NCBI GenBank assembly: GCA_031370005.1
Contig: JANMPT010000003.1
Coordinates: forward strand, 1 to 64,000
DNA: 64,000 nucleotides
Source: Bdellovibrionales bacterium
Lineage (GTDB): Bacteria; Bdellovibrionota; Bdellovibrionia; Bdellovibrionales; Bdellovibrionaceae
Direction: 5' to 3'
Part shown: positions 31,594 through 42,088 of the stretch, piece by piece
How positions within the stretch are numbered: position 1 is the first letter of the stretch
Layout of the letters: each line of letters starts with the position of its first letter
The notes under the pieces: generated by a model
What the model was told of the DNA's origin: nothing
The model's input: only the letters and a program-made list of their open reading frames with translations
Database searches by the model: none
Position numbers and translations under genes: made by a program

Positions 31594-31679
31594 GCGCGGG
31601 TGGTGAAATGGTAGACACGCAGGTCTCAGAAGCCTGTGGCCGAAAGGCTGTGGGGGTTCAAGTCCCCCCTCGCGCACCA
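31594..31679 (+). tRNA. tRNA-Leu(CAG)
   Basis: Acceptor GCGCGGG/CTCGCGC, anticodon stem CAGGT/GCCTG with loop CTCAGAA, long variable arm, GGGGG-TTCAAGT-CCCCC, encoded CCA. Confidence 0.95.
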
Positions 31680-33355
31680 ATACCTACAGTACTCGAGCCG
31701 GCACGGGTTTGAGGAAATGGGATCACAGAACCTTCTTTTTTCAAATTTATAGAAATTCCATCGGTGCCGGTTGCTTTGAAGGGTGACGAAGTTTCTTCAT
31801 CTTGTGGAGTTTCTGCGCCCTTTGCGGGCGCATACATTCCAATTTTGATTTTGGTTGGCTGAATCTCGATAAATTTAATCAGGTTTGCGAAAATCGGTCT
31901 TTGATTTTCAGGCTCTGAAATCTCAAGTCTATTAATAGTCTGCTTAATCCTATCTTTAAGACCATCTTCGTTAATTTGCTCAGACATAATCTGCATCGAT
32001 TGAGATCTGAGTTTTTCTTTCGCAAATTTCAAATCGGCGAGCTTCACATTCAATTGTTTGATCTGCTCGTAGAATTGATCGGCGGGAAGATCTGCCGGCA
32101 ACTCTGAAACTCTTTGCACAAGATTTGTGATCTTCTTGGCCGTTGTTTGAATTTCCGTGTCCATCACCTTTTGACGTGATTGCATCTCAGGCCAGTCACT
32201 TATGGACTTTTCTTTGTAAATGGCAATCCACTTTTCTATAAGGCCAGGTTCATTGAGAAGTTGTTTTAAGGACTTTAAAACAATCTCCTCTAACCGGTAA
32301 GCTCTCACGTTCTTGACCTGGCATTTAGGTTTTAGCTCCTGGGCCAGCGGATTCTTGATCTGCGAATGCCCATAGTAAAAATGCTTTTCTTTCCGGCCAA
32401 TGCCGGATTTCCCACCCATAGCTTTGCCACACTCACTGCATTGAATGAGTTCCGTCAGTGGAAAGGCATGATTTTTCCAGTCCTCAGGTTTATATTTATT
32501 TTTGTTCTTATGAAGGCGCTCTTGTACTTTGTTAAAAAAGGCTTCCTCGATGATTGGTTTCCAAACGGCAGAGACCAGCTCTCGATTTCCGTCAACATGA
32601 GCCACTTCGCGCTTTCCTAGGTAAATGGGGTTTGTCAAAAGACTTTGCAGAGTGTCCACGGTAAAAACATTACCGCCCTTATCAAGGCCGTGCTTGTTGG
32701 TGTACTTTTTGTTAAAGATTCCTTCTTTAATCAATCTGATTTGGGTCTTTCGGACTGATCCTTCCTCTATAAAAGTCTCAAATATTTTTATAACATCTGC
32801 CGATTCAAGATCGTTAATGAGCAGTTCACCTTTGTTCTTGGGGTTTCGGTCATATCCTAGGGGGATGCTTCCACCGTTCCAAAGGCCACGTTTTGCCCGG
32901 CTAAGCCAGTTGGCAGAAATTCTCTCAGCGGTTTGTTTGCGCTCGTACTGGGCATAATTTATGAGGTTAAAAACCATCATCTCGCCCGATGCAGTTGTGG
33001 TATCAAAAGATTCTCGAAGGGTGATGAAGCTGGCCTGATGCTTTTTTAACAGATCCCTGATGTCACAAAAATCACGAATATTACGGGATAAACGGGACAG
33101 CTCAGTTGCCAAAATCAAATTCACACGGCCGCCCTGGACGTCGGCTAGCATTCTTCTGAACTCAGGCCGATTCATATCTTTGGCAGATCTACCTTCGTCA
33201 CAATAGAATTCTACAATGTGACCCCAGTTGGCCTTGAGCTTGTTTTGATATTCCACATACTCAACAATTCGATTTTTCTGCGAGACCAGGGAGCCATCTA
33301 CAATTCTGGCCTGCTCTTCCGTCGATACCCGAATGTACACTCCGCAACGCTTCAT
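31658..33355 (-). CDS. Large serine recombinase (resolvase + recombinase + zinc ribbon + coiled coil)
   Basis: YIRVSTEEQ catalytic Ser, RPEF..ML, LSRLSRN, GLWNGG..PLGY, L.NPIYLG, CSECG zinc ribbon; last codons and stop lie in the antisense of tRNA-Leu. Confidence 0.95.
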   Translation of the reverse strand: MKRCGVYIRVSTEEQARIVDGSLVSQKNRIVEYVEYQNKLKANWGHIVEFYCDEGRSAKDMNRPEFRRMLADVQGGRVNLILATELSRLSRNIRDFCDIRDLLKKHQASFITLRESFDTTTASGEMMVFNLINYAQYERKQTAERISANWLSRAKRGLWNGGSIPLGYDRNPKNKGELLINDLESADVIKIFETFIEEGSVRKTQIRLIKEGIFNKKYTNKHGLDKGGNVFTVDTLQSLLTNPIYLGKREVAHVDGNRELVSAVWKPIIEEAFFNKVQERLHKNKNKYKPEDWKNHAFPLTELIQCSECGKAMGGKSGIGRKEKHFYYGHSQIKNPLAQELKPKCQVKNVRAYRLEEIVLKSLKQLLNEPGLIEKWIAIYKEKSISDWPEMQSRQKVMDTEIQTTAKKITNLVQRVSELPADLPADQFYEQIKQLNVKLADLKFAKEKLRSQSMQIMSEQINEDGLKDRIKQTINRLEISEPENQRPIFANLIKFIEIQPTKIKIGMYAPAKGAETPQDEETSSPFKATGTDGISINLKKEGSVIPFPQTRAGSSTVGIGARGGT

Positions 33356-33546
33356 GCGACCTCGCTTTCGATAAAGTCCTTTTGAATGGCCTCAGTTTTA
33401 TCATGGTCATTGCCCATTTCAAGTAGGCATTTTATGACGCGAGCTACGCGCTCGTTATAATCTTCCTCAGTTATTTTAATCTTCACGACCGCCACATTTT
33501 CTTCGTAAACGTAATCATTTTTAGAACCCATTATTTTAATCCCCAC
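33352..33546 (-). CDS. Small hypothetical protein coupled to the recombinase (possible directionality factor, unproven)
   Basis: GGAGG upstream; ATGA overlap with the recombinase start. Confidence 0.6.
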   Translation of the reverse strand: MGIKIMGSKNDYVYEENVAVVKIKITEEDYNERVARVIKCLLEMGNDHDKTEAIQKDFIESEVA

Positions 33547-33626
33547 ATACCAATCACCTCCCGGCTCAAGTTTTATTTTTCAAATTTTCATGCCTCCGTT
33601 TTTCCTTTCTTCGTTTTCAGTTTTAG

Positions 33627-34616
33627 TTATCCACATTTCTCATAACCCCTCTCCGTCACATCTTTATCAGTCCCAGATCCCTCTTCTCCGGCCACAGCTT
33701 CTGACCCCAGTCCACCTTTCGTTGGGGGAGTGGGGTCAGAAGCGATCAGTGGCCGGTTCCCAGGTTCTGTTTTTTCTGAATTTATTTGTGATGGAGAGGG
33801 GTTATCTGCAATTTCCGCGTTCAAATTTTGGTCGGCTTTGTTGCTCACCCCTTGAGTAGCTTTGTTTCCCTCTGATTTCCACACATCAAAGGCCAATTCG
33901 CCAAATGAGACAAAGCGGCTATCTTTTAAAAAGAAAACTTTTGAGTCTCTTTTATTCTTAAAAAAGTCATTAAGGTGGCTCACAAAGATATGCTGCCGAT
34001 CATTTCTAAAACTTTGCTTTTGCCAACCGGCTTTAAGTGCATGGACAAGGCCCTTGTCTTTGATGAAGTACCAAATAATATCAATACGGTTTTTGTCAGC
34101 GTACTCAGTGAATGTTTCCCGGTATCTCAAGTGGCTTTTCTGAGTAAGCTCTAGCTCCACCGCAATCACCAAAGCTTTGCCATTCATCATCTCCGCCATG
34201 AGCCCATCTGGGATGATTTTGTTACGGGCTTTTTTATAATCATGTCTGAAAGCTCCTGCCTTCATGACACATTCGGAAGTCCACTCAAGGCCAAGATTCA
34301 TTGCCTCAAAGGCAAGTCTCAAGTCATTCAAAAGCACATCATGTTCAATGGTGTTGCGGTTTGAAAATTTAAATGAGTCTTCTAAACCGAGAAGTCTTCG
34401 GCCGCCAACATCAAGCCGCCAGGTGTTTGTGCCATTCTTTAATGTCACTCCGCGAGAGATAAAACGCCCTTCCTCTAAAAGGCGCAGCCGCTTCATGACA
34501 GTGGTGTGGGCAACACCCTTAAAAAAGAGAGCCCCAATTTGACGAGTCGAGAGGACTCCAAATTTATAAATACTGGCAATAATTTCTTTGTCCCTTGCCT
34601 GTAACTTCATCCCCAA
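33627..34616 (-). CDS. Replication-relaxation (Replic_Relax) family protein
   Basis: N-terminal wHTH (L..RD..I...YKFGVLSTRQI...RL..L), EHD.LLNDLR, IPDG and AVELELTQKS..RY PD-(D/E)xK-like motifs. Confidence 0.8.
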   Translation of the reverse strand: MGMKLQARDKEIIASIYKFGVLSTRQIGALFFKGVAHTTVMKRLRLLEEGRFISRGVTLKNGTNTWRLDVGGRRLLGLEDSFKFSNRNTIEHDVLLNDLRLAFEAMNLGLEWTSECVMKAGAFRHDYKKARNKIIPDGLMAEMMNGKALVIAVELELTQKSHLRYRETFTEYADKNRIDIIWYFIKDKGLVHALKAGWQKQSFRNDRQHIFVSHLNDFFKNKRDSKVFFLKDSRFVSFGELAFDVWKSEGNKATQGVSNKADQNLNAEIADNPSPSQINSEKTEPGNRPLIASDPTPPTKGGLGSEAVAGEEGSGTDKDVTERGYEKCG

Positions 34617-35215
34617 TGTCCTTTGATGATTTCATTGATGGCTTTTTTGCTCACGACTTTAAGACTTTTCTCGTGAGCTTGACGGGCCAGCTCCTCGGAA
34701 ATCTTGCGCTCATATTCAACCTCCTGGGCCTTCAGAATTTCCAACTGCTTCGCCTCATACTTTTTACGGCGTTCATTGGCCGCAGTGATTTTGGCTTGTT
34801 CCATCTGCTGACGCTGTTCTTCCGGCAAAGCCATATAGGCATTTTCTTTTTCAATTCGCCCCAACTCAATCCGCTGAAGAATAGCCTGGCATTCCAGTTC
34901 ATCCAGCTCGGCTTGGGTGAGACGCTTTTCTTCGGCCAATTGCTTTTGCTTGTGGGTCCAATTATTCAAAAAGAATTTCAAGGCAGGGGTAGAAATCAGA
35001 AATAGAAAAAATAGGCCAGCGCAGATCAGGCAAAGGTAAACTGCATTGACCTCCATGCGCCATAGAGGCCCAACAAGACCATCCCAAAGGAAATGGCCCC
35101 TGTGATCAAGACCACTGATCCAAAAGCCCCAACGAAGCACGTTAAAGAGAAATACACACATGCCCAGTTTTATTAAGAGCACTTTCTCAAAATTTTTTAT
35201 AGGCACCTCCCTCAT
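34607..35215 (-). CDS. Hypothetical membrane protein with coiled-coil tail
   Basis: Two hydrophobic segments, charged C-terminus; overlaps the relaxase-like gene. Confidence 0.6.
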   Translation of the reverse strand: MREVPIKNFEKVLLIKLGMCVFLFNVLRWGFWISGLDHRGHFLWDGLVGPLWRMEVNAVYLCLICAGLFFLFLISTPALKFFLNNWTHKQKQLAEEKRLTQAELDELECQAILQRIELGRIEKENAYMALPEEQRQQMEQAKITAANERRKKYEAKQLEILKAQEVEYERKISEELARQAHEKSLKVVSKKAINEIIKGHWG

Positions 35216-35340
35216 TTAAAAATCACTCGCTTCTCATAGGTAATATCAAAAACGATGCCGTATTCGTGTCGCAGAGTGATTTTTCTATAAGCCTTTGTTT
35301 TCAAGACACAAAAATGATTTCCATACTTTTTGTGGCCCGC

Positions 35341-35709
35341 TTTAAGTGACGAAACTTCGTCACTTAAAATTTAGGCTCGCCCTCGGTTTTGAACCTCAAT
35401 TGAATCAATTCACCAACTTAGCAACGACGAGACCTCGACACGATTTGACGAACATTCGTCGCACACGACTTTTTAAAATTGCAAGGCCATGCCAGCATGA
35501 CCGAAAAGTGATTTAAGTTTTGGGAAACTCAAACGAATATTGAGATCCATCTCAATATGATAGGGCTGAAAAGTTTCAAATAATTTGAAACTTTTTTTTG
35601 GGTCTTGAATGAAATCATAGACTTGAGTCATTTCAAATTTCTTGAAGACTTTCAGGAAATTTGAAACCTCAAGCTCTGGCTGGGTTTTTCGGGTGACGAA
35701 ATTTCGTCA
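35341..35709. repeat. Cluster of palindromic sites in the non-coding region
   Basis: TTTAAGTGACGAA-AC-TTCGTCACTTAAA (35341-35368), GACGAA-CA-TTCGTC (35447-35460), TGACGAAATTTCGTCA (35694-35709), ATATTGAGAT-CC-ATCTCAATAT (35537-35558), AAAAGTTTCAAA-TAA-TTTGAAACTTTT (35569-35595). Confidence 0.85.
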
Positions 35710-35826
35710 TTTCAGAGGTCGACTTTACCGGTAATCGCAGTGGGTATAAGTGCTTAAAATTGTTGAGGTAAATCGGCTACGTTTTTAGACTAAAATTTCG
35801 ATGCCGATGAAATCAATTTATCCGTG

Positions 35827-35852
35827 GGGTTCGAATCCCTCCCTCTCCGCCA
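35827..35852 (+). other. Isolated 3' fragment of a tRNA-Ser (att-like relic)
   Basis: GGGTTCGAATCCCTCCCTCTCCGCCA = T-loop + acceptor 3' strand + G discriminator + CCA; no 5' half upstream. Confidence 0.75.
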
Positions 35853-35946
35853 TTTCCGAAAGTCTGGTTGTGAAAGGCGACCTCAATAAGGACGGTTGGG
35901 AATAAACCCTCGGGGGAATAAAGAAGAGAGCAAGCCCAAACGGCCG

Positions 35947-36813
35947 TCACAATAGTGATGAAAGATTTTCGGTAAGAAATTTTTTAAATGAAATAGCATC
36001 TCGCTTCAAAATATCGGAAACCACAGATGTTGGTTTAGAGAACTGGCCATTTGCGATGTTCTCACCCAGTTTCGTGAGATCGCTTGCCAACCAAGCGGGA
36101 TATCCCATAGCAGTTAGCCCCTGCACGAGTTGTTGAGAAGGCATGTTTACATAATTTATTTCTCTTTTTAAAAGTGAAGTTAGCGCCTCTGCCGCATCGC
36201 TGAACGAAATCGCCTCACTTCCCGAGATCACATAAGTTTTTCCCGCGTGACCGTTTTCCTGAAGGCAGGCGACGGCTACTGCGGCAATGTCGCGAGCATC
36301 AACCATTGCGAGTAAACCATCACTATAATTTCCATACACTGCATTCTGTGATTTAATCGCCCCAGCCTGTGCAATGAAGTTCTGCATAAAAAAATAGGGT
36401 TGCAGGATTGAAAATGAAATTTCAGAGTTTTTTAGGTAATCGTCAGCTTTGGCATGCTGTTGTGCTTGTGATATTGGAGAATCCTTACTTGCTCCAGCCC
36501 CGGAAAGCATAACGATTCGCCTTACGCCAACCTTTTTAGCAACATCAATAGCATTTTTCTTCAATTCAGCTTCATTTTGAGTAGGGGGTGCCAACAAAAA
36601 AAGCCTTTCAATTCCGGTGAGTGCTTTTTCCAGGCTAGACAAATCCTCTAAATCCCCAGTTACCGCTTCGATATTGAGTTCCTCCGCCATCTTCGCGGAT
36701 TTGGAACTGCGAGAAAGCATTTTTGTTTGAATATGCGATTTAGAAAGTTGTTTGAGAACCTCGATTCCAACTTTGCCCGTACCGCCAATAACGAGAATCA
36801 TATTACGCTCCAT
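35947..36813 (-). CDS. NmrA-like / atypical SDR NAD(P)-binding oxidoreductase
   Basis: ILVIGGTGKVG Rossmann motif, LQPYFFMQN, VDARDIAAVA, GKTYVISG. Confidence 0.9.
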   Translation of the reverse strand: MERNMILVIGGTGKVGIEVLKQLSKSHIQTKMLSRSSKSAKMAEELNIEAVTGDLEDLSSLEKALTGIERLFLLAPPTQNEAELKKNAIDVAKKVGVRRIVMLSGAGASKDSPISQAQQHAKADDYLKNSEISFSILQPYFFMQNFIAQAGAIKSQNAVYGNYSDGLLAMVDARDIAAVAVACLQENGHAGKTYVISGSEAISFSDAAEALTSLLKREINYVNMPSQQLVQGLTAMGYPAWLASDLTKLGENIANGQFSKPTSVVSDILKRDAISFKKFLTENLSSLL

Positions 36814-36828
36814 CTTGCTAATGTGGGT

Positions 36829-37269
36829 TTAAGTCAGAAGCTTGTGCAACTTCTCAAATGAGCTTTCCCAGCCATGGGTGTGGCCGGAGCAATCCTTTTC
36901 ATCAATGAATCCAGTTTGACTAAGCGTGATTTCAGTCCCATCAGCTACTTTTCGAAATTCAACTGTCACCGTTGTGTGTGGCGCGGGACCTCTCCAAGTA
37001 CCTGTGCAATCAAATACAAGGCGCTCATTTGGAACAATTTCCATGTAGGTGCCAGACATGTTGCCGGTAGTCTGTTGGCCACGCATCTCTCCTTCCATAG
37101 AAATAACAAATTTTCCGCCCACTTTAAAATCAACTTGGACCTCAGGAATTGATAATGTTCCCGGAGCAAACCAGCTTTTTAGTAAATTTGGGCTTTTCCA
37201 AGCATCAAAAACTTTCTCCGGGGACGCCTTTATCGTCTTTTTCATTTGTACTTTAATGTTTGGGTTCAT
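36829..37269 (-). CDS. SRPBCC/AHSA1 domain protein
   Basis: I.ASPEKVFDAW..P.LL..WF, DFKVGG, Y.EIVPNERL, H.HGW; GGAG RBS before ATG 37269. Confidence 0.9.
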   Translation of the reverse strand: MNPNIKVQMKKTIKASPEKVFDAWKSPNLLKSWFAPGTLSIPEVQVDFKVGGKFVISMEGEMRGQQTTGNMSGTYMEIVPNERLVFDCTGTWRGPAPHTTVTVEFRKVADGTEITLSQTGFIDEKDCSGHTHGWESSFEKLHKLLT

Positions 37270-37597
37270 GTTTTTTCTCCTCCAAAAGTTCTTGAAGCGC
37301 GTCCAAACGATTGCCCCAAAATTGTTGATAATATGAAATCCATTGATCTGCCGTCTTAAGAGTCTCGGCATTGAGACTGACAATCTGATAACTGCCCTCT
37401 TTTTTCCTGTCGATTAACTTTGCGTTCTCAAGCACCTTGAGATGCTTCGATACAGCCGCTAAAGACATTGTAAATGGCTTGGCAATTTCGCTCACGGTTT
37501 TTTGCTTCTTCGATATGCCTCGCATTATGGAGCGACGAGTAGAATCTGCCAAAGCATGAAAAATTAGGTCTAATTGTCCTATTTCAGATTTAACCAT
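37253..37597 (-). CDS. ArsR/SmtB family transcriptional regulator
   Basis: FHALADSTRRSI, MSLAAVSKHLKVLE.A.LI, FW..RLDAL. Confidence 0.93.
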   Translation of the reverse strand: MVKSEIGQLDLIFHALADSTRRSIMRGISKKQKTVSEIAKPFTMSLAAVSKHLKVLENAKLIDRKKEGSYQIVSLNAETLKTADQWISYYQQFWGNRLDALQELLEEKKHEPKH

Positions 37598-37645
37598 ATG
37601 GTTTAATGATAACAGATTCTACTATAGAGTCAACCATTTGGTTAA
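37590..37645. promoter_or_regulatory. Two probable ArsR operators
   Basis: AACC-ATAT-GGTT (37592-37603, over the start codon) and AACC-ATTT-GGTT (37632-37643). Confidence 0.7.
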
Positions 37646-37829
37646 ATCATTGAAAAGGTTCGGAATTAATCGAGCTCTCGGAAATAATCTCAGAATTCAG
37701 CATTGGGCATTACCGGACAGAAGTGCCACCCAAGTTACTCTTTTAAAGAAAATCGAGAGCGAATTAAGATTTGCGCTTTTTTCCCCAATCGTACATGGCA
37801 TCCAATATCGGTCGAAGGCTCCTGCCTGA

Positions 37830-38276
37830 ATCCGTCTTCTATTTTTATTTGTTTCTCAAGCCTTTGCCCAGAATATCCCGACCGAGTCTCCGGTGCTTGA
37901 GGATGTGATCATCAACTCGATGAGCGTCACTTACCCTTCTCCTTATAAGATTTCGATGGCAACTTATCTTGGACAAGCTCCGAAATATCGGCAGACGGCT
38001 ACATATAATTGTGGACTGAGTGCACGCAACGGCTATGACCTCTGGTGCTGGGGATTTTCTGGGGGCGGCGCCCAATTGCGTATGTTTCCAGATTTGGGAA
38101 TCGATTCGAAAAATTTGCGCCTTCCCCCCGAGTCAGGGAACACCTTTGCCCGTATGAATACGACCAAGACCAATTGCGAGAAAATGCAACAGGATCTTGC
38201 AAATGCGAGCTCAGAGAAACAATTTGTTCTCCGCGTTTATGGCAACAGAAGCTTTACTTTAACTCCACGGCCTTAA
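37830..38276 (+). pseudogene. Probably 5'-truncated secreted-protein gene
   Basis: Frame upstream of GTG 37893 reads RLLFLFVSQAFA|QNIP (end of a signal peptide) back to a TGA at 37827 with no ATG. Confidence 0.5.
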
Positions 38277-38291
38277 ACGAAGTTGCAACCC

Positions 38292-38534
38292 CTATGCTTT
38301 CTTTCTAAAAACGGTCTGCTCAAGCTTTTCTAGACGGTCCTCTACAGAGTCATGGGACTCAATAGATTTTCTGAGAAACCAATTTAAGAAGGTTTGGTAT
38401 CCCATTCCTTGTTTCTCGCCCTCAGATTCCAACCATTCAATGACCTCAGCATCAAGCCGAAAAGTCTTGATGACTTTGATGTCTTTTGCTTTTTTACCCC
38501 TTTTTGCCTTTGAGAAATCATATTCATTTTTCAT
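38292..38534 (-). CDS. BrnA-like antitoxin
   Basis: MKNEYDFSKAKRG, T.RLD.EVIEW, GYQT.LN.FLR. Confidence 0.9.
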   Translation of the reverse strand: MKNEYDFSKAKRGKKAKDIKVIKTFRLDAEVIEWLESEGEKQGMGYQTFLNWFLRKSIESHDSVEDRLEKLEQTVFRKKA

Positions 38535-38537
38535 AAC

Positions 38538-38816
38538 TCACCTCGAAAGATATTGGTTTGACTCGGTTTTGGTGGCTGGTCTTGCAGAGATAATTCGGAC
38601 CCGCTCACCCTCAATTTTTTCACAATAAACAACCACTAACAAATTGGCCTTTCGTGATATCCCCAGCCTAAGCCATCTCTCTTCATCATGAGAGTGTTCT
38701 GGGTCTGGAGTTTCTAGGGCAGAATTATCAAGCCAAATGGTTATTGCCTCAGAAAAGCGAATCCCATGCTTTTTATAGTTGCTGTCTGCCTTGGTGTCGT
38801 CCCACTCAAAGTCCAT
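38538..38816 (-). CDS. BrnT family toxin (ribonuclease)
   Basis: FEWD.TK..SN.KKHGIRF.EA, HS.DEERW..LG, RIISARPAT. Confidence 0.93.
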   Translation of the reverse strand: MDFEWDDTKADSNYKKHGIRFSEAITIWLDNSALETPDPEHSHDEERWLRLGISRKANLLVVVYCEKIEGERVRIISARPATKTESNQYLSR

Positions 38817-38821
38817 AATTC

Positions 38822-38850
38822 ACTATATTATATTGTTATTACTTTGTAAA
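38822..38850 (-). promoter_or_regulatory. Sigma70-type promoter of brnTA
   Basis: TTTACA-N17-TATAGT ending 5 nt before the ATG. Confidence 0.6.
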
Positions 38851-38865
38851 TACATTTTTAAAATC

Positions 38866-39097
38866 TCATATAGTTGGTTTTAAAGCGTTTTGCCGCACAA
38901 AGGCCTCTGAAGCCCCAATGGCCCTCGCTGTTTTCCCGGAATTCCCATATTTCTTGATAAGCGTCAGCAGGTCGGCCGGCAAAAGGGCCTTCGGCTCCGC
39001 AACAACCTCAAATTCAGCTTGAAACACCGGCTCAGATCGAAATAAAGTGCTCGCAGAGATGGCGAGCGGTTCGTCTACTTCGGTGACTTTGGCACCA
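38866..39097 (-). other. Orphan reading frame: predicted displaced C-terminal tail of the serine recombinase (HTH-like end)
   Basis: Same frame as the recombinase across the GGT-GCN core; reads GAKVTEVDEPLAI...KKYGNSGKTARAIGASEAFVRQN. Confidence 0.6.
39068..39097 (+). repeat. att-like tRNA-end mimic, copy 1
   Basis: GGTTCGTCTACTTCGGTGACTTTGGCACCA. Confidence 0.65.
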
Positions 39098-39120
39098 TTT
39101 AACATTTTCAGTCACTTGTA

Positions 39121-39162
39121 CCAATACGGCGAATGGCTTTTTCAATTCAAATTCAATACTTA
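39121..39162 (+). repeat. 42-bp direct repeat, copy 1
   Basis: CCAATACGGCGAATGGCTTTTTCAATTCAAATTCAATACTTA, identical to 40718-40759. Confidence 0.95.
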
Positions 39163-39255
39163 CACCCTTCTAGCCCCTGATATACGTTGGACATATTTAC
39201 GACGGCTTTCGAAGTGCCGAGGGGCAAATGGCTAAGAAAGGCAGTGTAATTGATT

Positions 39256-39453
39256 TTAACGCCATTCATAGTGTCCCATGTGAGGTGTTTTTTTCAAATG
39301 TAATTTAAGGCCGTTGATATCTTGCTCAAGTTCAAGAAACTTTCGGTCCGCGAACTCTTGAGACTGCTCAAGGTTGTGAGTGTAAAGCCAGAATGCAGCC
39401 TCTTCTAGCTCAGCTTTGAACTTGTCGGATTCGAGGATTTCAAATGCTTGCAT
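39256..39453 (-). pseudogene. Truncated RelE/ParE-like toxin
   Basis: 65 aa directly after the antitoxin; ParE-like N-terminus (..AELEEAAFW..L...PHMG) that ends before the usual C-terminal strands. Confidence 0.6.
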
Positions 39454-39756
39454 TTAGCCGACGGCTTTCTTCGTTCTCTTTGCATTGAGGGCTCGTGTTT
39501 TGGCGCGATTCAAAGTGTCCTTTGTCGATTGGTCCGTGACACGACTCACTCGTCCTTGAGCAATATCAACAAGGCCAACAGTCAGCCCATGCAGCCTAGC
39601 AAGATCGAGCTGCATTTTCTCAAAAACGTCGGCATTAAGAAGAACGAAGGCTTCCCCAGATTTTCGAGTGATTTTAACAGGCTCAACCCTTGCGGCTTCC
39701 ATCCACTCTTTCATATTTGATCTGAAGTCATTGGCATTTGTTCTGTCCATAGACAC
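39454..39756 (-). CDS. Phd/YefM family antitoxin
   Basis: NANDFRSNM.EWM.AA..EPV.ITRKSG..FVLL; AGGAGG RBS. Confidence 0.88.
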   Translation of the reverse strand: MSMDRTNANDFRSNMKEWMEAARVEPVKITRKSGEAFVLLNADVFEKMQLDLARLHGLTVGLVDIAQGRVSRVTDQSTKDTLNRAKTRALNAKRTKKAVG

Positions 39757-39769
39757 CTCCTATTCTTAA

Positions 39770-39798
39770 ATAGTACACTTAACCGTACTGTTAGCCAA
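39770..39798 (-). promoter_or_regulatory. Sigma70-type promoter with AGTAC-N8-GTACT operator
   Basis: TTGGCT-N17-TACTAT on minus; inverted repeat at 39772-39789. Confidence 0.6.
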
Positions 39799-39895
39799 GA
39801 TGCTATTTTATCAGAAAAGTACCGTGTCTTGACTGGTAAAGCGAATACAACGTGATTGCATCCACTGTATAGGATACGTTTTATCCATTGCCAGA

Positions 39896-39925
39896 GGTTC
39901 TTCTAGCCTACGGCCGTGGGCACCA
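39896..39925 (+). repeat. att-like tRNA-end mimic, copy 2
   Basis: GGTTCTTCTAGCCTACGGCCGTGGGCACCA; same length and anchors as copy 1. Confidence 0.6.
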
Positions 39926-39979
39926 CTGATTTTCGGGTCCACCCCGAAGACATAGGGAACACTTTTCGGTATCTGCGGT

Positions 39980-40291
39980 TTAGCTCGCCTTAGAAAAACT
40001 AAAACCAAACTCAAAGTGACCACCACAAGCGGCCGCTATGCGAGCCAACAGCGGAATAGACGGCACTCGCTTATCAGAACCACCCTCAAGTCTTGCAATC
40101 ACACTTTGAGTCGTTCCAATCAGTTTAGCTAATTGAGCCTGAGTTAAGTCAGCTTTCATGCGCGCAGCTCTAACCGCATGCGCGATTTCAGTTTTAGATT
40201 TTTCTTCTTCAAACTGAATACGAACTTCTTTGTCTTTTAATATTTTTTGAAAAAATGGCTTTGCTGATTTGTATGATTTTTTATTTTTCAT
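39980..40291 (-). CDS. HTH (XRE/HigA-like) antitoxin
   Basis: AARMKADLTQAQLA.LIGTTQSVIARLEGG..PS..LL.RIA.A. Confidence 0.9.
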   Translation of the reverse strand: MKNKKSYKSAKPFFQKILKDKEVRIQFEEEKSKTEIAHAVRAARMKADLTQAQLAKLIGTTQSVIARLEGGSDKRVPSIPLLARIAAACGGHFEFGFSFSKAS

Positions 40292-40623
40292 AATCCTAAA
40301 ACCTCTTTCATTCTTTTTTCAGCGATTTCAAGATCGCCCGTTGGTGTTTTCTGAGTTTTCTTTTTAAAAGCATGAAGCCAAACCATCGTATTTGTTTCAA
40401 CAACAACATAGGCTATGCGGTAGCTGCCGCTTGGTGTATTAAACTTTACTTCCCAGAGTTTACCGCGAAGCTGCCTAAACTGAACACGCGGACAACCTAA
40501 TCCATATTTTTCAATACCTTCAAAGACATCAGCAAAACGTGCTTGATCTGCTTTTGGCAGATCACTGATAAAATCTTCGATTGGGCTTCGTCCTGACGAC
40601 GTTTCGTAAAGAGCTACTTTCAC
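40288..40623 (-). CDS. RelE/HigB-like toxin (toxin-first TA pair)
   Basis: YET.SGRSPIEDFI..L, L.GKLWEVK, YRI.Y, LHAFKKKTQKTP..DLEIA.KR. Confidence 0.92.
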   Translation of the reverse strand: MKVALYETSSGRSPIEDFISDLPKADQARFADVFEGIEKYGLGCPRVQFRQLRGKLWEVKFNTPSGSYRIAYVVVETNTMVWLHAFKKKTQKTPTGDLEIAEKRMKEVLGL

Positions 40624-40625
40624 AC

Positions 40626-40658
40626 CCTTAATATAGCCAAAAGGCTATATTAAGGCAA
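40626..40658 (-). promoter_or_regulatory. Sigma70-type promoter overlapped by a perfect 13-bp-arm operator
   Basis: CCTTAATATAGCC-AAAA-GGCTATATTAAGG (40626-40655); TTGCCT-N17-TATATT on minus. Confidence 0.75.
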
Positions 40659-40717
40659 GATTTTTTTAATTTAGCTATTCTGCCCTACAAAGGCCTGACT
40701 AGCGCCGACCGTGTCAG

Positions 40718-40759
40718 CCAATACGGCGAATGGCTTTTTCAATTCAAATTCAATACTTA
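40718..40759 (+). repeat. 42-bp direct repeat, copy 2
   Basis: Identical to 39121-39162. Confidence 0.95.
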
Positions 40760-40994
40760 AGCCATTTAATATTGGGTTAGGAGAGTACATTATCACCCTC
40801 GACAATTTCTCGGAGCACATTTTGGGCAGCAATGACGTCGGACTCTGGGGTCCAATAGTCTTCGTAGCAGAGACAGTTCGCGCAGTGCGAATTTGCAAAA
40901 CAGCTGCTGATACAATCAAGGCATTTTAAGTGGCTATTTTGCTATGAATAGTTGTGAATTTGTATAGACAATAAATATCAAGTAAAATCATATG

Positions 40995-41020
40995 GTTATA
41001 TTATAACTGTATAATATAAC
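40995..41020. promoter_or_regulatory. Inverted repeat upstream of the hipB-like gene (possible operator)
   Basis: GTTATATTATA-ACTG-TATAATATAAC in an AT-rich region with further TATATTA half-sites. Confidence 0.55.
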
Positions 41021-41131
41021 ATTCAAAATATCGTTAATTGGCCATTATATTAGTCATTATTTAGTTAGCTTATTTTGATGTGAATAATATAGTTGCCAAA
41101 ACGCCAGTAATTGGATACTATATTATCCATT

Positions 41132-41470
41132 ATGGGAAAGAAGACAGCTACACAGACACCAAAGCTAATAGCCCTTCTTAAAGCACTGGGTGAAAACATC
41201 CACCTAGCACGTCGTCGTCGTCGCCTCTCGTCCACAATGCTTGCTGAAAGGGCCGGAATGACTCGAATGACCTTGCGGGCAGTTGAAAGAGGCGAGCCAA
41301 CAGCAAGCCTTGGTGCGTATGCAAATGTACTTTTTAGCCTCGGACTTGAAAAAGATCTGTCGACTGTTGCGAAAGACGATGAGCTGGGTCGAAGACTTCA
41401 GGATGCAAGCTTAGTCAGAAGCAAAAAAACTAAGTCAAAAAAAGATCCCTCAAAAACAGAGCTAGAGTAA
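41132..41470 (+). CDS. HipB-like HTH antitoxin
   Basis: LGENI.LARRRR.LS..MLAERAG.TR.TL..VE.G, Y.NVLFSLGL..DL..VAKDDELGRRLQD. Confidence 0.88.
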   Translation: MGKKTATQTPKLIALLKALGENIHLARRRRRLSSTMLAERAGMTRMTLRAVERGEPTASLGAYANVLFSLGLEKDLSTVAKDDELGRRLQDASLVRSKKTKSKKDPSKTELE

Positions 41471-41474
41471 AATT

Positions 41475-41749
41475 ATGGGAAAGAGCAAGACTGGGCAAAA
41501 AATAGTTTATATTTATGCCAATTGGGAGACGCTAGAAACTCCTCAGCTTACGGGATCTCTATTTGTAACCCTCTCACGCGGTAAAGAAATTTTTTCATTT
41601 GAGTATGATCCAAAATGGCTGAAGTCAAATTACGCCCACGATCTTGATCCAAATTTAAAATTTTTTGGCGGTCCTCAGTATCCTAAATCCGATCACGCAA
41701 ACTTTGGTCTTTTTCTTGATTCGTCTCCAGATCGTTGGGGGTTGATAAA
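41475..41749 (+). pseudogene. Truncated HipA toxin (N-terminal domain only)
   Basis: RGKEIFSFEYD..WL, LDP.L, FG.FLDSSPDRWG, after which the frame runs into tRNA-Ala antisense; kinase domain absent. Confidence 0.85.
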
Positions 41750-41824
41750 TGGTGGACCCAACCAGAGTCGAACTGGTGACTTATCCATGCCATGGACATA
41801 TAATCCCAACTTCACCATGGGCCC
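41750..41824 (-). tRNA. tRNA-Ala(GGC)
   Basis: Sense GGGCCCA...TGGGTCC-ACCA with G3:U70; anticodon stem TGTCC/GGATA with loop ATGGCAT; ACCAG-TTCGACT-CTGGT; D-stem weak (two G:U pairs). Confidence 0.85.
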
Positions 41825-42088
41825 GTTTTTCATTCTACCTATAGTCACTCCGCAGACGACTAACAATGGTTTTAATATAGACTCTTGCAGCGGCAACATA
41901 CGTTATAACTATCGCCCCTAGCGCTCCGAAAAAAGTCAAAACTACCTGCACCAAAAATGTACTCAATATTCAGCAAAACCTTGGCGTAGATGTCGCGCGC
42001 GCGAGTAAATAGGACTTCCCTTTCAAAAAAATGAGTCAACTGTCTGGCTTAGCTTGCTCCTTCAGAGGTGAAGAGGTAGATTTACCTG

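Follow-up and report, generated by a model that had tools for sequence, protein, structure and literature searches.

Mobile elements stacked at the 3′ end of a structural RNA gene have been described in several systems. In the ssrA islands of Dehalococcoides, islands with large serine recombinases (LSRs) lie in tandem and the att site falls within the integrase gene (McMurdie et al. 2011, PMC3146451); the authors suggest that a complete DsiB integrase gene may exist only where the island is circular or follows another one. Accretion of integrative and mobilizable elements (IMEs) and cis-mobilizable elements (CIMEs) has been divided into integration, decay to a recombinase-less att-bounded element, and a new target-proximal integration (Guedon et al. 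2017, PMC5704250). For tRNA islands, it was stated in 2014 that serine recombinases were then not known to target tRNA genes (PMC4383910). Here we analysed 64,000 nucleotides of a Bdellovibrionales genome (GCA_031370005.1, contig JANMPT010000003.1, positions 1 to 64,000; hereafter the window), in which a leucine tRNA gene, tRNA-Leu(CAG), is followed by an LSR element and a series of toxin-antitoxin (TA) operons. An initial annotation had read this series as three equivalent units on the minus strand, each made of a recombinase "tail", its stop codon, a promoter and a TA operon, and had proposed either serial accretion at the tRNA with erosion down to the TA ends, or an integron-like array of cassettes moved by the one intact recombinase. 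We conclude that, besides one intact element, the window contains two to three TA-bearing relics, a known process in an undescribed family; our literature search, from which most subscription journals were missing, found no paper on Bdellovibrionota LSR elements or TA-only LSR cassettes at tRNAs. Very probably, small elements were stacked at the tRNA-Leu 3′ end and decayed to TA-bearing relics, by tandem accretion with decay. Serial accretion is supported, with the correction that the pieces stem from at least three recombinase lineages and from ends resembling those of insertion sequences (IS).

The tRNA-Leu(CAG) gene (31594..31679, plus strand; called by ARAGORN) offers its 3′ end as the integration target, the B′ arm. 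The adjacent LSR gene (31658..33355, minus strand) is intact and encodes 565 aa with the Resolvase, Recombinase and Zn-ribbon domains of an LSR element (PF00239, PF07508, PF13408); a profile search of the genome found no other full-length PF07508 gene. Its final codons extend into the tRNA gene in antisense, and its P arm carries the motif GGCTC-N3-TACT at -20. The distal end is an att core with a P′ arm of the GGTTC-N3-TACT type (39068..39097, minus), which belongs to tail A (38866..39096, minus), a P′ arm plus a helix-turn-helix (HTH)-like C-terminal extension in the same frame as the LSR entering the tRNA. Both the LSR and tail A are of the TACT type and cognate, and they delimit an element of 7,418 bp (31679-39097) that holds a relaxase, cargo genes and a BrnTA operon. 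BrnT (92 aa) and BrnA (80 aa; 38292..38816, minus; PF04365, PF14384) are both intact and follow a promoter-like site (38822..38850, minus). Unit A, consisting of tail A and BrnTA, is the only one of the three that belongs to the intact element. The pairing of this tail with BrnTA is also present in L054, with a BrnA 96% identical, and in L097. At L054:8000-8378, a tail is joined in frame into BrnT via a common 10-nt stretch.

The cores at 39925 and 39097 (minus) both read TGGTGC-N19-GAACC and are 828 bp apart, and the tRNA end at 31679, which lies 8,246 bp from 39925, reads TGGTGC-N14-GAACC; both distances had been given correctly in the initial annotation. The motif GGTTC-N3-TACT is present in the P arm (before the tRNA) and in P′ (after the distal core), symmetric around a central GC, at which crossover presumably takes place. 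In LSR att sites the outer motifs of attP lie 5 bp further out than those of attB (PMC11722253). The window arms fit this shift and an attP of ~50 bp, since the tRNA T-loop gives the arm motif 5 bp nearer the core than the attP arms do. Only 6-11 bp of core are common to element and tRNA. A search for the P′ pattern in 182 genomes of the family found it in 31 and gave 0 control hits. At each junction the left and right arms are unlike. Besides the cognate pair, arms in the window could be assigned to LSRs that have 34% and 23% identity with the intact one, and LSRs of those other lineages were seen at tRNA ends (L016, L138, L014, L140). Tandem junctions also occur elsewhere (L052, L055, L062, L092, L103, L138).

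The tail is the P′ arm together with a C-terminal domain that the recombinase carries only once the att site has been rejoined; the initial annotation had not recognised it as a detached part of the recombinase. This assignment follows from natural fusions, a frame match, the pattern of conservation and the rarity of upstream start codons. Among ten tail proteins found, P0004 is an LSR C-terminus that continues in frame through the core into a tail, and P0011 is a second fusion, which resembles a tandem-junction hybrid; L073 holds a further one. Fusions of this kind in databases may derive from circles or from tandem junctions. All 6 complete elements compared, each with a full-length LSR at a tRNA end, have the LSR running into the tRNA in the frame of the tail. 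Across 55 tail loci, conservation starts at the core and the upstream side is variable. In the 34 tails compared, codons 1-10, the att arm, are conserved as DNA (pS 0.19, pN 0.19), and the distal HTH part is conserved as protein (pS 0.84, pN 0.31). An in-frame ATG within 15 codons upstream was present in 8 of 58 tails. The modelled fold has three helices (pLDDT 76); Foldseek gave no match at E≤0.001, the top entries being Aca1 and N15 Cro, and the best Atlas hit (0.86) is a lead only. From the model and these weak HTH matches, the tail is likely an HTH domain, which would have a regulatory role. Palindromes of the form TGACGAA-N-TTCGTCA recur at 31781-31800 and 35691-35710 (GTGACGAA-type) and at 35341-35368, one of them within the LSR 3′ end, and are candidate binding sites for it. 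Tail homologs with named records are nearly all from Bdellovibrionota, and the family of the window lies within that group; no tail relative was found in the viral contigs searched.

The outline of the three units could be reproduced: the stops at 38866, 39811 and 40671 are followed after 15, 12 and 12 nt by -35 boxes at 38850, 39798 and 40658, and the TA family differs in each unit (BrnT/BrnA; Phd plus a 65-aa fragment; a HigB/HigA-like pair). The promoters fared less evenly. The scan lists 38850 (10/12 consensus positions) and 40658 (9/12), whereas 39798 is unlisted and reached 8/12 by hand; the scan total was 11 sites versus 8.1 ± 2.8 in shuffled sequence, so that consensus matches alone are not above chance. 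The equivalence of the units had to be given up, as the tails are not one family, the stop of unit B lies in unrelated DNA and unit C lacks an att core.

Unit B is a mosaic, in which Phd, a ParE-like toxin of half length and an IS-like end are combined with arms from a second LSR subfamily and a third LSR family. The arm of the second subfamily, an att core with a 64-bp P′ stub of the GGTTC-N3-TAGC type (39862..39925, minus), has lost the HTH part. Between the right arm of this core and an intact tail-B element (L138, G133), 61 of 64 nt agree, and the match stops at 39862; in G133 the LSR of that element is 34% identical to the window LSR and the tail runs on into the HTH. The stub is also supported by L016 and L103. 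Because the match ends at 39862, the stop at 39811 lies outside the tail, and its 12-nt spacing to the promoter is fortuitous. The Phd antitoxin (PF02604; 39454..39798, minus) has its own promoter region. DNA homology of the Phd/ParE operon to other genomes begins close to the -35 box, at query 190-199 of 931, with or without a tail, hence the promoter moves with the operon. The ParE/RelE-like toxin (39256..39453, minus) is truncated to 65 aa, with homology ending near 39272; two homologs are full length (117-120 aa) and three further ones are also shortened. No Pfam or NCBIfam match backs the label ParE-like, which derives from a homolog of full length; in the Atlas, the second hit of this homolog is to a cluster containing 11% PF05016 (score 0.90). 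Next come a probable IS3-type end of 43 nt (39162..39204, minus), which has 95% identity with a motif lying 41 nt ahead of a PF01527 open reading frame (ORF) in L132, and a 3′ stub plus P arm of a third, KKPF-type, LSR family (39098..39162, minus), 42 nt of which are identical to 40718-40759. A full gene of this type encodes 532 aa in L140 (identity with the window LSR 23% over 222 aa), and one lies at tRNA-Leu(CAG) in G006. On the other side of core 39925, the left arm (39931..39965, minus) is like the end of an IS481-type element. It resembles arms in L096 and L092 (0/2000 shuffles each) and in L033 (24/2000), where the same arm lies behind a PF13683 transposase ORF, which we take to mark IS481. 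An earlier reading of this arm as an LSR remnant was dropped in its favour.

These features bear directly on the integron-like alternative, in which units B and C would be cassettes excised and reinserted by the intact LSR. In unit B two cores are kept, but its arms (TAGC-type P′, KKPF-type P) are both non-cognate, and only its antitoxin is intact; toxin and tail are truncated, with an IS-like end inside. The regular tail-promoter-TA layout and the core common to 39925, 39097 and the tRNA speak for cassettes, and the LSR family of the window tolerates very different left arms, yet unit B has no end-to-end homolog among 182 genomes, the best ones reaching query 190-719 of 931, and unit C is without a core. 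No IntI (TIGR02249) match over the cut-off was found in the genome, and none on C105. Within 38200-41000 the sole attC-like core pair (RYYYAAC/GTTRRRY) folds worse than shuffled sequences (z 1.8, 1.5), and the arms differ per junction, against the one shared site type of an integron. We therefore regard this alternative as improbable for the window, although small recombinase-less TA units do recur at tRNA-Leu ends in relatives (see below).

Unit C comprises a HigB-like toxin (Gp49, PF05973), a HigA-like antitoxin (PF01381) and their promoter (39980..40658, minus), with an operator-like palindromic hairpin at 40626-40655. Such a pair also lies behind tails in L037, L055, L103 and L105. Upstream of it (40671..40795, minus), a deletion has joined a second KKPF-type 3′ stub (40795-40718), carrying the 42 nt in common with the first, to a tail end (40718-40671), and the core is lost. 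The tail portion amounts to the final ~14 codons and matches a tail end on contig C120 of the same genome. Further out, a HipB-like antitoxin (TIGR03070, E 2.6e-8, below the cut-off) and a HipA-like N-terminal fragment (PF13657, E 0.044, weak) form a fourth TA relic in the opposite orientation (41111..41744, plus), cut right before the end of a second tRNA-Ala(GGC) copy (41750..41824, minus), which closes the island. This copy has 1 mismatch to the one on C50, with which it also shares 14 nt upstream, and in the 41111-41838 area it cuts the HipA-like gene. Possibly, a second stack grows here toward the tRNA-Leu stack, at the gene-order break before hisS.

The proposal that the slot behind the tail is a TA hotspot stood up when tail homologs were searched and the next gene tabulated. 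After removal of 9 loci (8 duplicates, 1 of tail-B type) 78 anchors remained, 73 of them assessable. A TA gene lay ≤250 nt from the tail end in 42 of the 73, convergent to the tail in 30 and co-directional in 12. TA genes were found at 1 of 92 control positions 1.5 or 2.5 kb further on, and at 42 of 20,000 random positions in the own genome. Even allowing for an inflated ratio, the difference is large, which supports a hotspot across homologs. At least 11 TA types follow tails (Pfam, NCBIfam): BrnTA, Gp49/HTH, HicAB, RHH/PIN, PIN/HTH_17, TumE/HVO_A0114, DhiT/CopG, RelE/HTH, YafQ/HTH, Phd and Doc/MazE. BrnT/BrnA and Gp49/HTH_3 are toxin and antitoxin families arranged as two-gene operons, as in type II TA systems. 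A tail tree of 50 of the 78 anchors gave 25 label changes (minimum 15, shuffled 32.5) with 8 of 47 branches starred, a weak support that is enough to show repeated swaps, not their number. In the own genome, a tail on C114 precedes RHH/PIN and the tail end on C120 meets a convergent pair. At L073:3539 and L121:1544, a small resolvase gene, not a TA gene, directly follows the tail.

A cassette-like form does exist in relatives, where recombinase-less tail-TA units of 0.8-1.1 kb end at tRNA-Leu or at the next core: 858 bp (L064), 859 bp (L100), 855 bp (L120), 1,030 bp (L062), 794 and 1,023 bp in tandem (L092), 934 bp (L035) and 1,066 bp (L096); one of 1,361 bp (L098) has cognate arms. The tail-BrnTA units of L064 and L100 are 92% identical end to end, lie at tRNA-Leu(CAA) and tRNA-Leu(CAG), respectively, and have unrelated upstream flanks. 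The L120 unit, from another family, is 88% and 86% identical to them and abuts a tRNA-Leu(GAG)-like end that ARAGORN does not call. All three are closed by a conserved ~60-bp arm, here termed the X arm, which occurs 12 times in 10 of 384 genomes (0 control hits), in 11 of 12 cases after a TA or putative TA. A role of the X arm as TA promoter was considered and dropped; by eye, L064 has a separate promoter-like site nearer the toxin start. The shared ends and the tRNA-adjacent position fit a small unit itself integrated by a recombinase in trans, so that the conserved 855-859-bp units at three tRNA-Leu ends suggest TA cassettes moved in trans. Against this count the tails of X-closed units, which come from separate clades, the lack of an X arm in the window's genome, and the fact that no circle of such a unit is known. 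Since a search of the window's genome found no X arm, the units in the window are not X cassettes.

The same data bear on a different origin of the hotspot, namely that the TA operons come from other tRNA-targeting elements, such as X-arm-ended ones, were joined to the tail by deletion, and appear as a hotspot through survival. The excess of convergent pairs, the mixed clades of the tails in X-closed units, the many types of closing arm and unit B, itself such a fusion, would all suit this. However, tails adjoin TA operons in elements that still have their LSR gene (the window, L060, L066, L101, L105), near-identical tail-TA pairings recur across genomes, and the three 855-859-bp units have both ends in common. 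We judge this origin unlikely, if less so than mobile cassettes in the window. A bolder scheme can be put forward tentatively: Bdellovibrionales may have non-autonomous TA-only cassettes of 0.8-1.1 kb, made of P′ arm, HTH tail and a conserved closing arm, for which any tRNA-Leu end would be a site of integration in trans, with stacks ordered by time of arrival. The tRNA end would then play the part of attI, and the whole would be a serine-recombinase counterpart of an integron. The stack in the window might then be the aged form, and the detached HTH might switch the recombinase between circular and integrated forms.

The preferred explanation, stacking with decay, runs as follows. The tRNA-Leu 3′ end would serve as a reusable attB, at which small Bdellovibrionales elements of several recombinase lineages would integrate successively, each newcomer landing beside the tRNA and shifting older elements outward. 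In the tail lineages the LSR gene itself contains attP, so that integration severs the ~70-aa HTH tail and leaves it at the far end; very often a type II TA operon with its own promoter follows directly. Older elements would lose recombinase and most cargo by deletions, some of them at IS ends, until att stubs and TA operons remain, and addiction may be why the TA genes outlive the rest. Junction anatomy, recombinase lineages, frame match, selection on the tail, truncations and TA enrichment are established at the level of sequence; the order of events is our reconstruction. Within the window, excision by the intact LSR is to be expected of the 7,418-bp element alone, since units B and C are relics.

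Several observations weigh against this explanation. The selection test took only open-frame tails, and tail A has a nearby in-frame ATG, such that it could be translated separately. The 28 TA queries were drawn from the same loci and the window, with kin that are non-independent; 5 of the 42 TA hits are putative pairs with a sub-threshold match, and 31 of 73 tails, including those of most complete elements, have no adjacent TA. Comparison of the tRNA-Leu locus across relatives, as the initial annotation had recommended, revealed no definable empty site, as gene order differs on either side: tRNA-Leu(CAG) stood beside the flanking gene at 5 of 19 loci, with differing downstream genes, the 11 loci upstream of hisS are without tRNA or island genes, and the gene that precedes hisS in relatives sits on C107 in the window genome. 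Circle joints for 828, 7,418 and 8,246 bp were absent from four contig runs, in which rare forms are dropped, so that this does not show circles to be absent. Finally, it is the genome assembly that gives the order at the 42-nt repeat; run contigs break there.

They also break at both tRNA copies, and local gene order is unlike that of relatives, as a chimera assembled around short repeats and tRNA copies would predict. Yet the pieces of run X1, which may be the source and hence non-independent, tile the region at 9.5-11.8x (one 82-nt piece at 14.6x) with no other letters, single X1 contigs bridge 39097 and 39925, contamination of the genome is 1.09%, and junctions of these kinds recur in many further genomes. 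A chimera is thus extremely improbable. Runs X2-X5 contain small shares only; an X2 contig joining 39925 to 39984 (unknown letters between, depth 3.2, a 25-nt side) was too weak to use.

The remainder of the intact element comprises a backbone (33352..35215, minus) of a 64-aa ORF, a Replic_Relax relaxase (PF13814, E 1.4e-8) and a membrane protein. By its position the 64-aa ORF is possibly a directionality factor; a homolog precedes an LSR in L066. The cargo (35947..37597, minus; profile search) consists of ArsR, AHSA1/SRPBCC and NmrA, and at 37760-37900 (minus) a remnant seen by eye is presumably the end of an HxlR-type regulator. A copy of a tRNA-Ser 3′ end inside the element (35825..35853, minus; 1 mismatch to the genome's tRNA-Ser(TGA)) is the scar of another junction. 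At L126:1291, a tail with a tRNA-Ser-type core is directly followed by the Phd/ParE pair also present in the window, so a Ser-targeting sister lineage exists. The matches from PADLOC were limited to generic HTH and weak NsnC ones. Elsewhere in the own genome (G000) we noted DhiT/CopG with a P arm at tRNA-Leu(TAG) (C5:60916-62099), BrnTA near tRNA-Val (C54:4729-6335), an LSR fragment, tail, RHH/PIN and HicB behind tRNA-Pro (C114:3900-10000), and more short Recombinase-domain fragments (C30:1159-1338, C9:23507-23656). With labels given wholly or partly by eye, there are also four successive TA-like pairs beside an AAA ATPase, with no core seen (C33:40302-43474), and a run of TA-like and nucleotidyltransferase-like genes behind tRNA-Lys/Glu (C99:131700-137600).

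Taken alone, the window represents ordinary decay of stacked elements; the new parts are the TA slot and the recurring ~856-bp cassette. Together they offer one concrete way for TA modules to accumulate at a single chromosomal site in the absence of an integron, and the ~856-bp natural cassettes, with exact ends, are a testable set. Among the closest described systems is ssrA-GI/DsiB of Dehalococcoides, with which this locus shares a CcrB-like LSR of ~540-565 aa, an att site within the integrase gene, tandem arrangement at a structural RNA 3′ end and accretion of cis-mobilizable units. The target there is ssrA, with dsiA/parB/mom; here it is tRNA-Leu (Arg- and Ser-type cores also occur), with the 64-aa ORF, relaxase and membrane protein. 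Elements here are 1-8 kb, the adjacent slot holds TA operons instead of dehalogenase genes, and what is detached is a defined HTH on which purifying selection acts, which gives substance to the 2011 guess about DsiB. With IMEs and CIMEs (PMC5704250), the three steps, the chimeric internal att junctions and the carriage of TA systems are shared. The 7,418-bp element has a relaxase and no conjugation genes among its ORFs scanned, like an IME, and recombinase-less units B and C stand in tandem with it, like CIMEs. Here, however, units shrink to <1 kb, three LSR lineages and IS-like ends contribute the arms, and the recombinase-less units of relatives adjoin the tRNA, the newest position. Sedentary chromosomal integrons (PMC13108822) are alike in the array of small units, the newest at a fixed site, and in the many TA families with their own promoters; they differ in that here double-stranded LSR-type att arms bound decayed, heterogeneous units, with no tyrosine IntI, attI, attC hairpin or Pc. 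Tyrosine-integrase tRNA islands (Islander, PMC4383910) likewise use a tRNA 3′ target and form tandem arrays, whereas here an LSR targets the tRNA through a shared core of only 6-11 bp; a tRNA half-site appears to suffice for these recombinases, a point relevant to the target specificity of LSRs.

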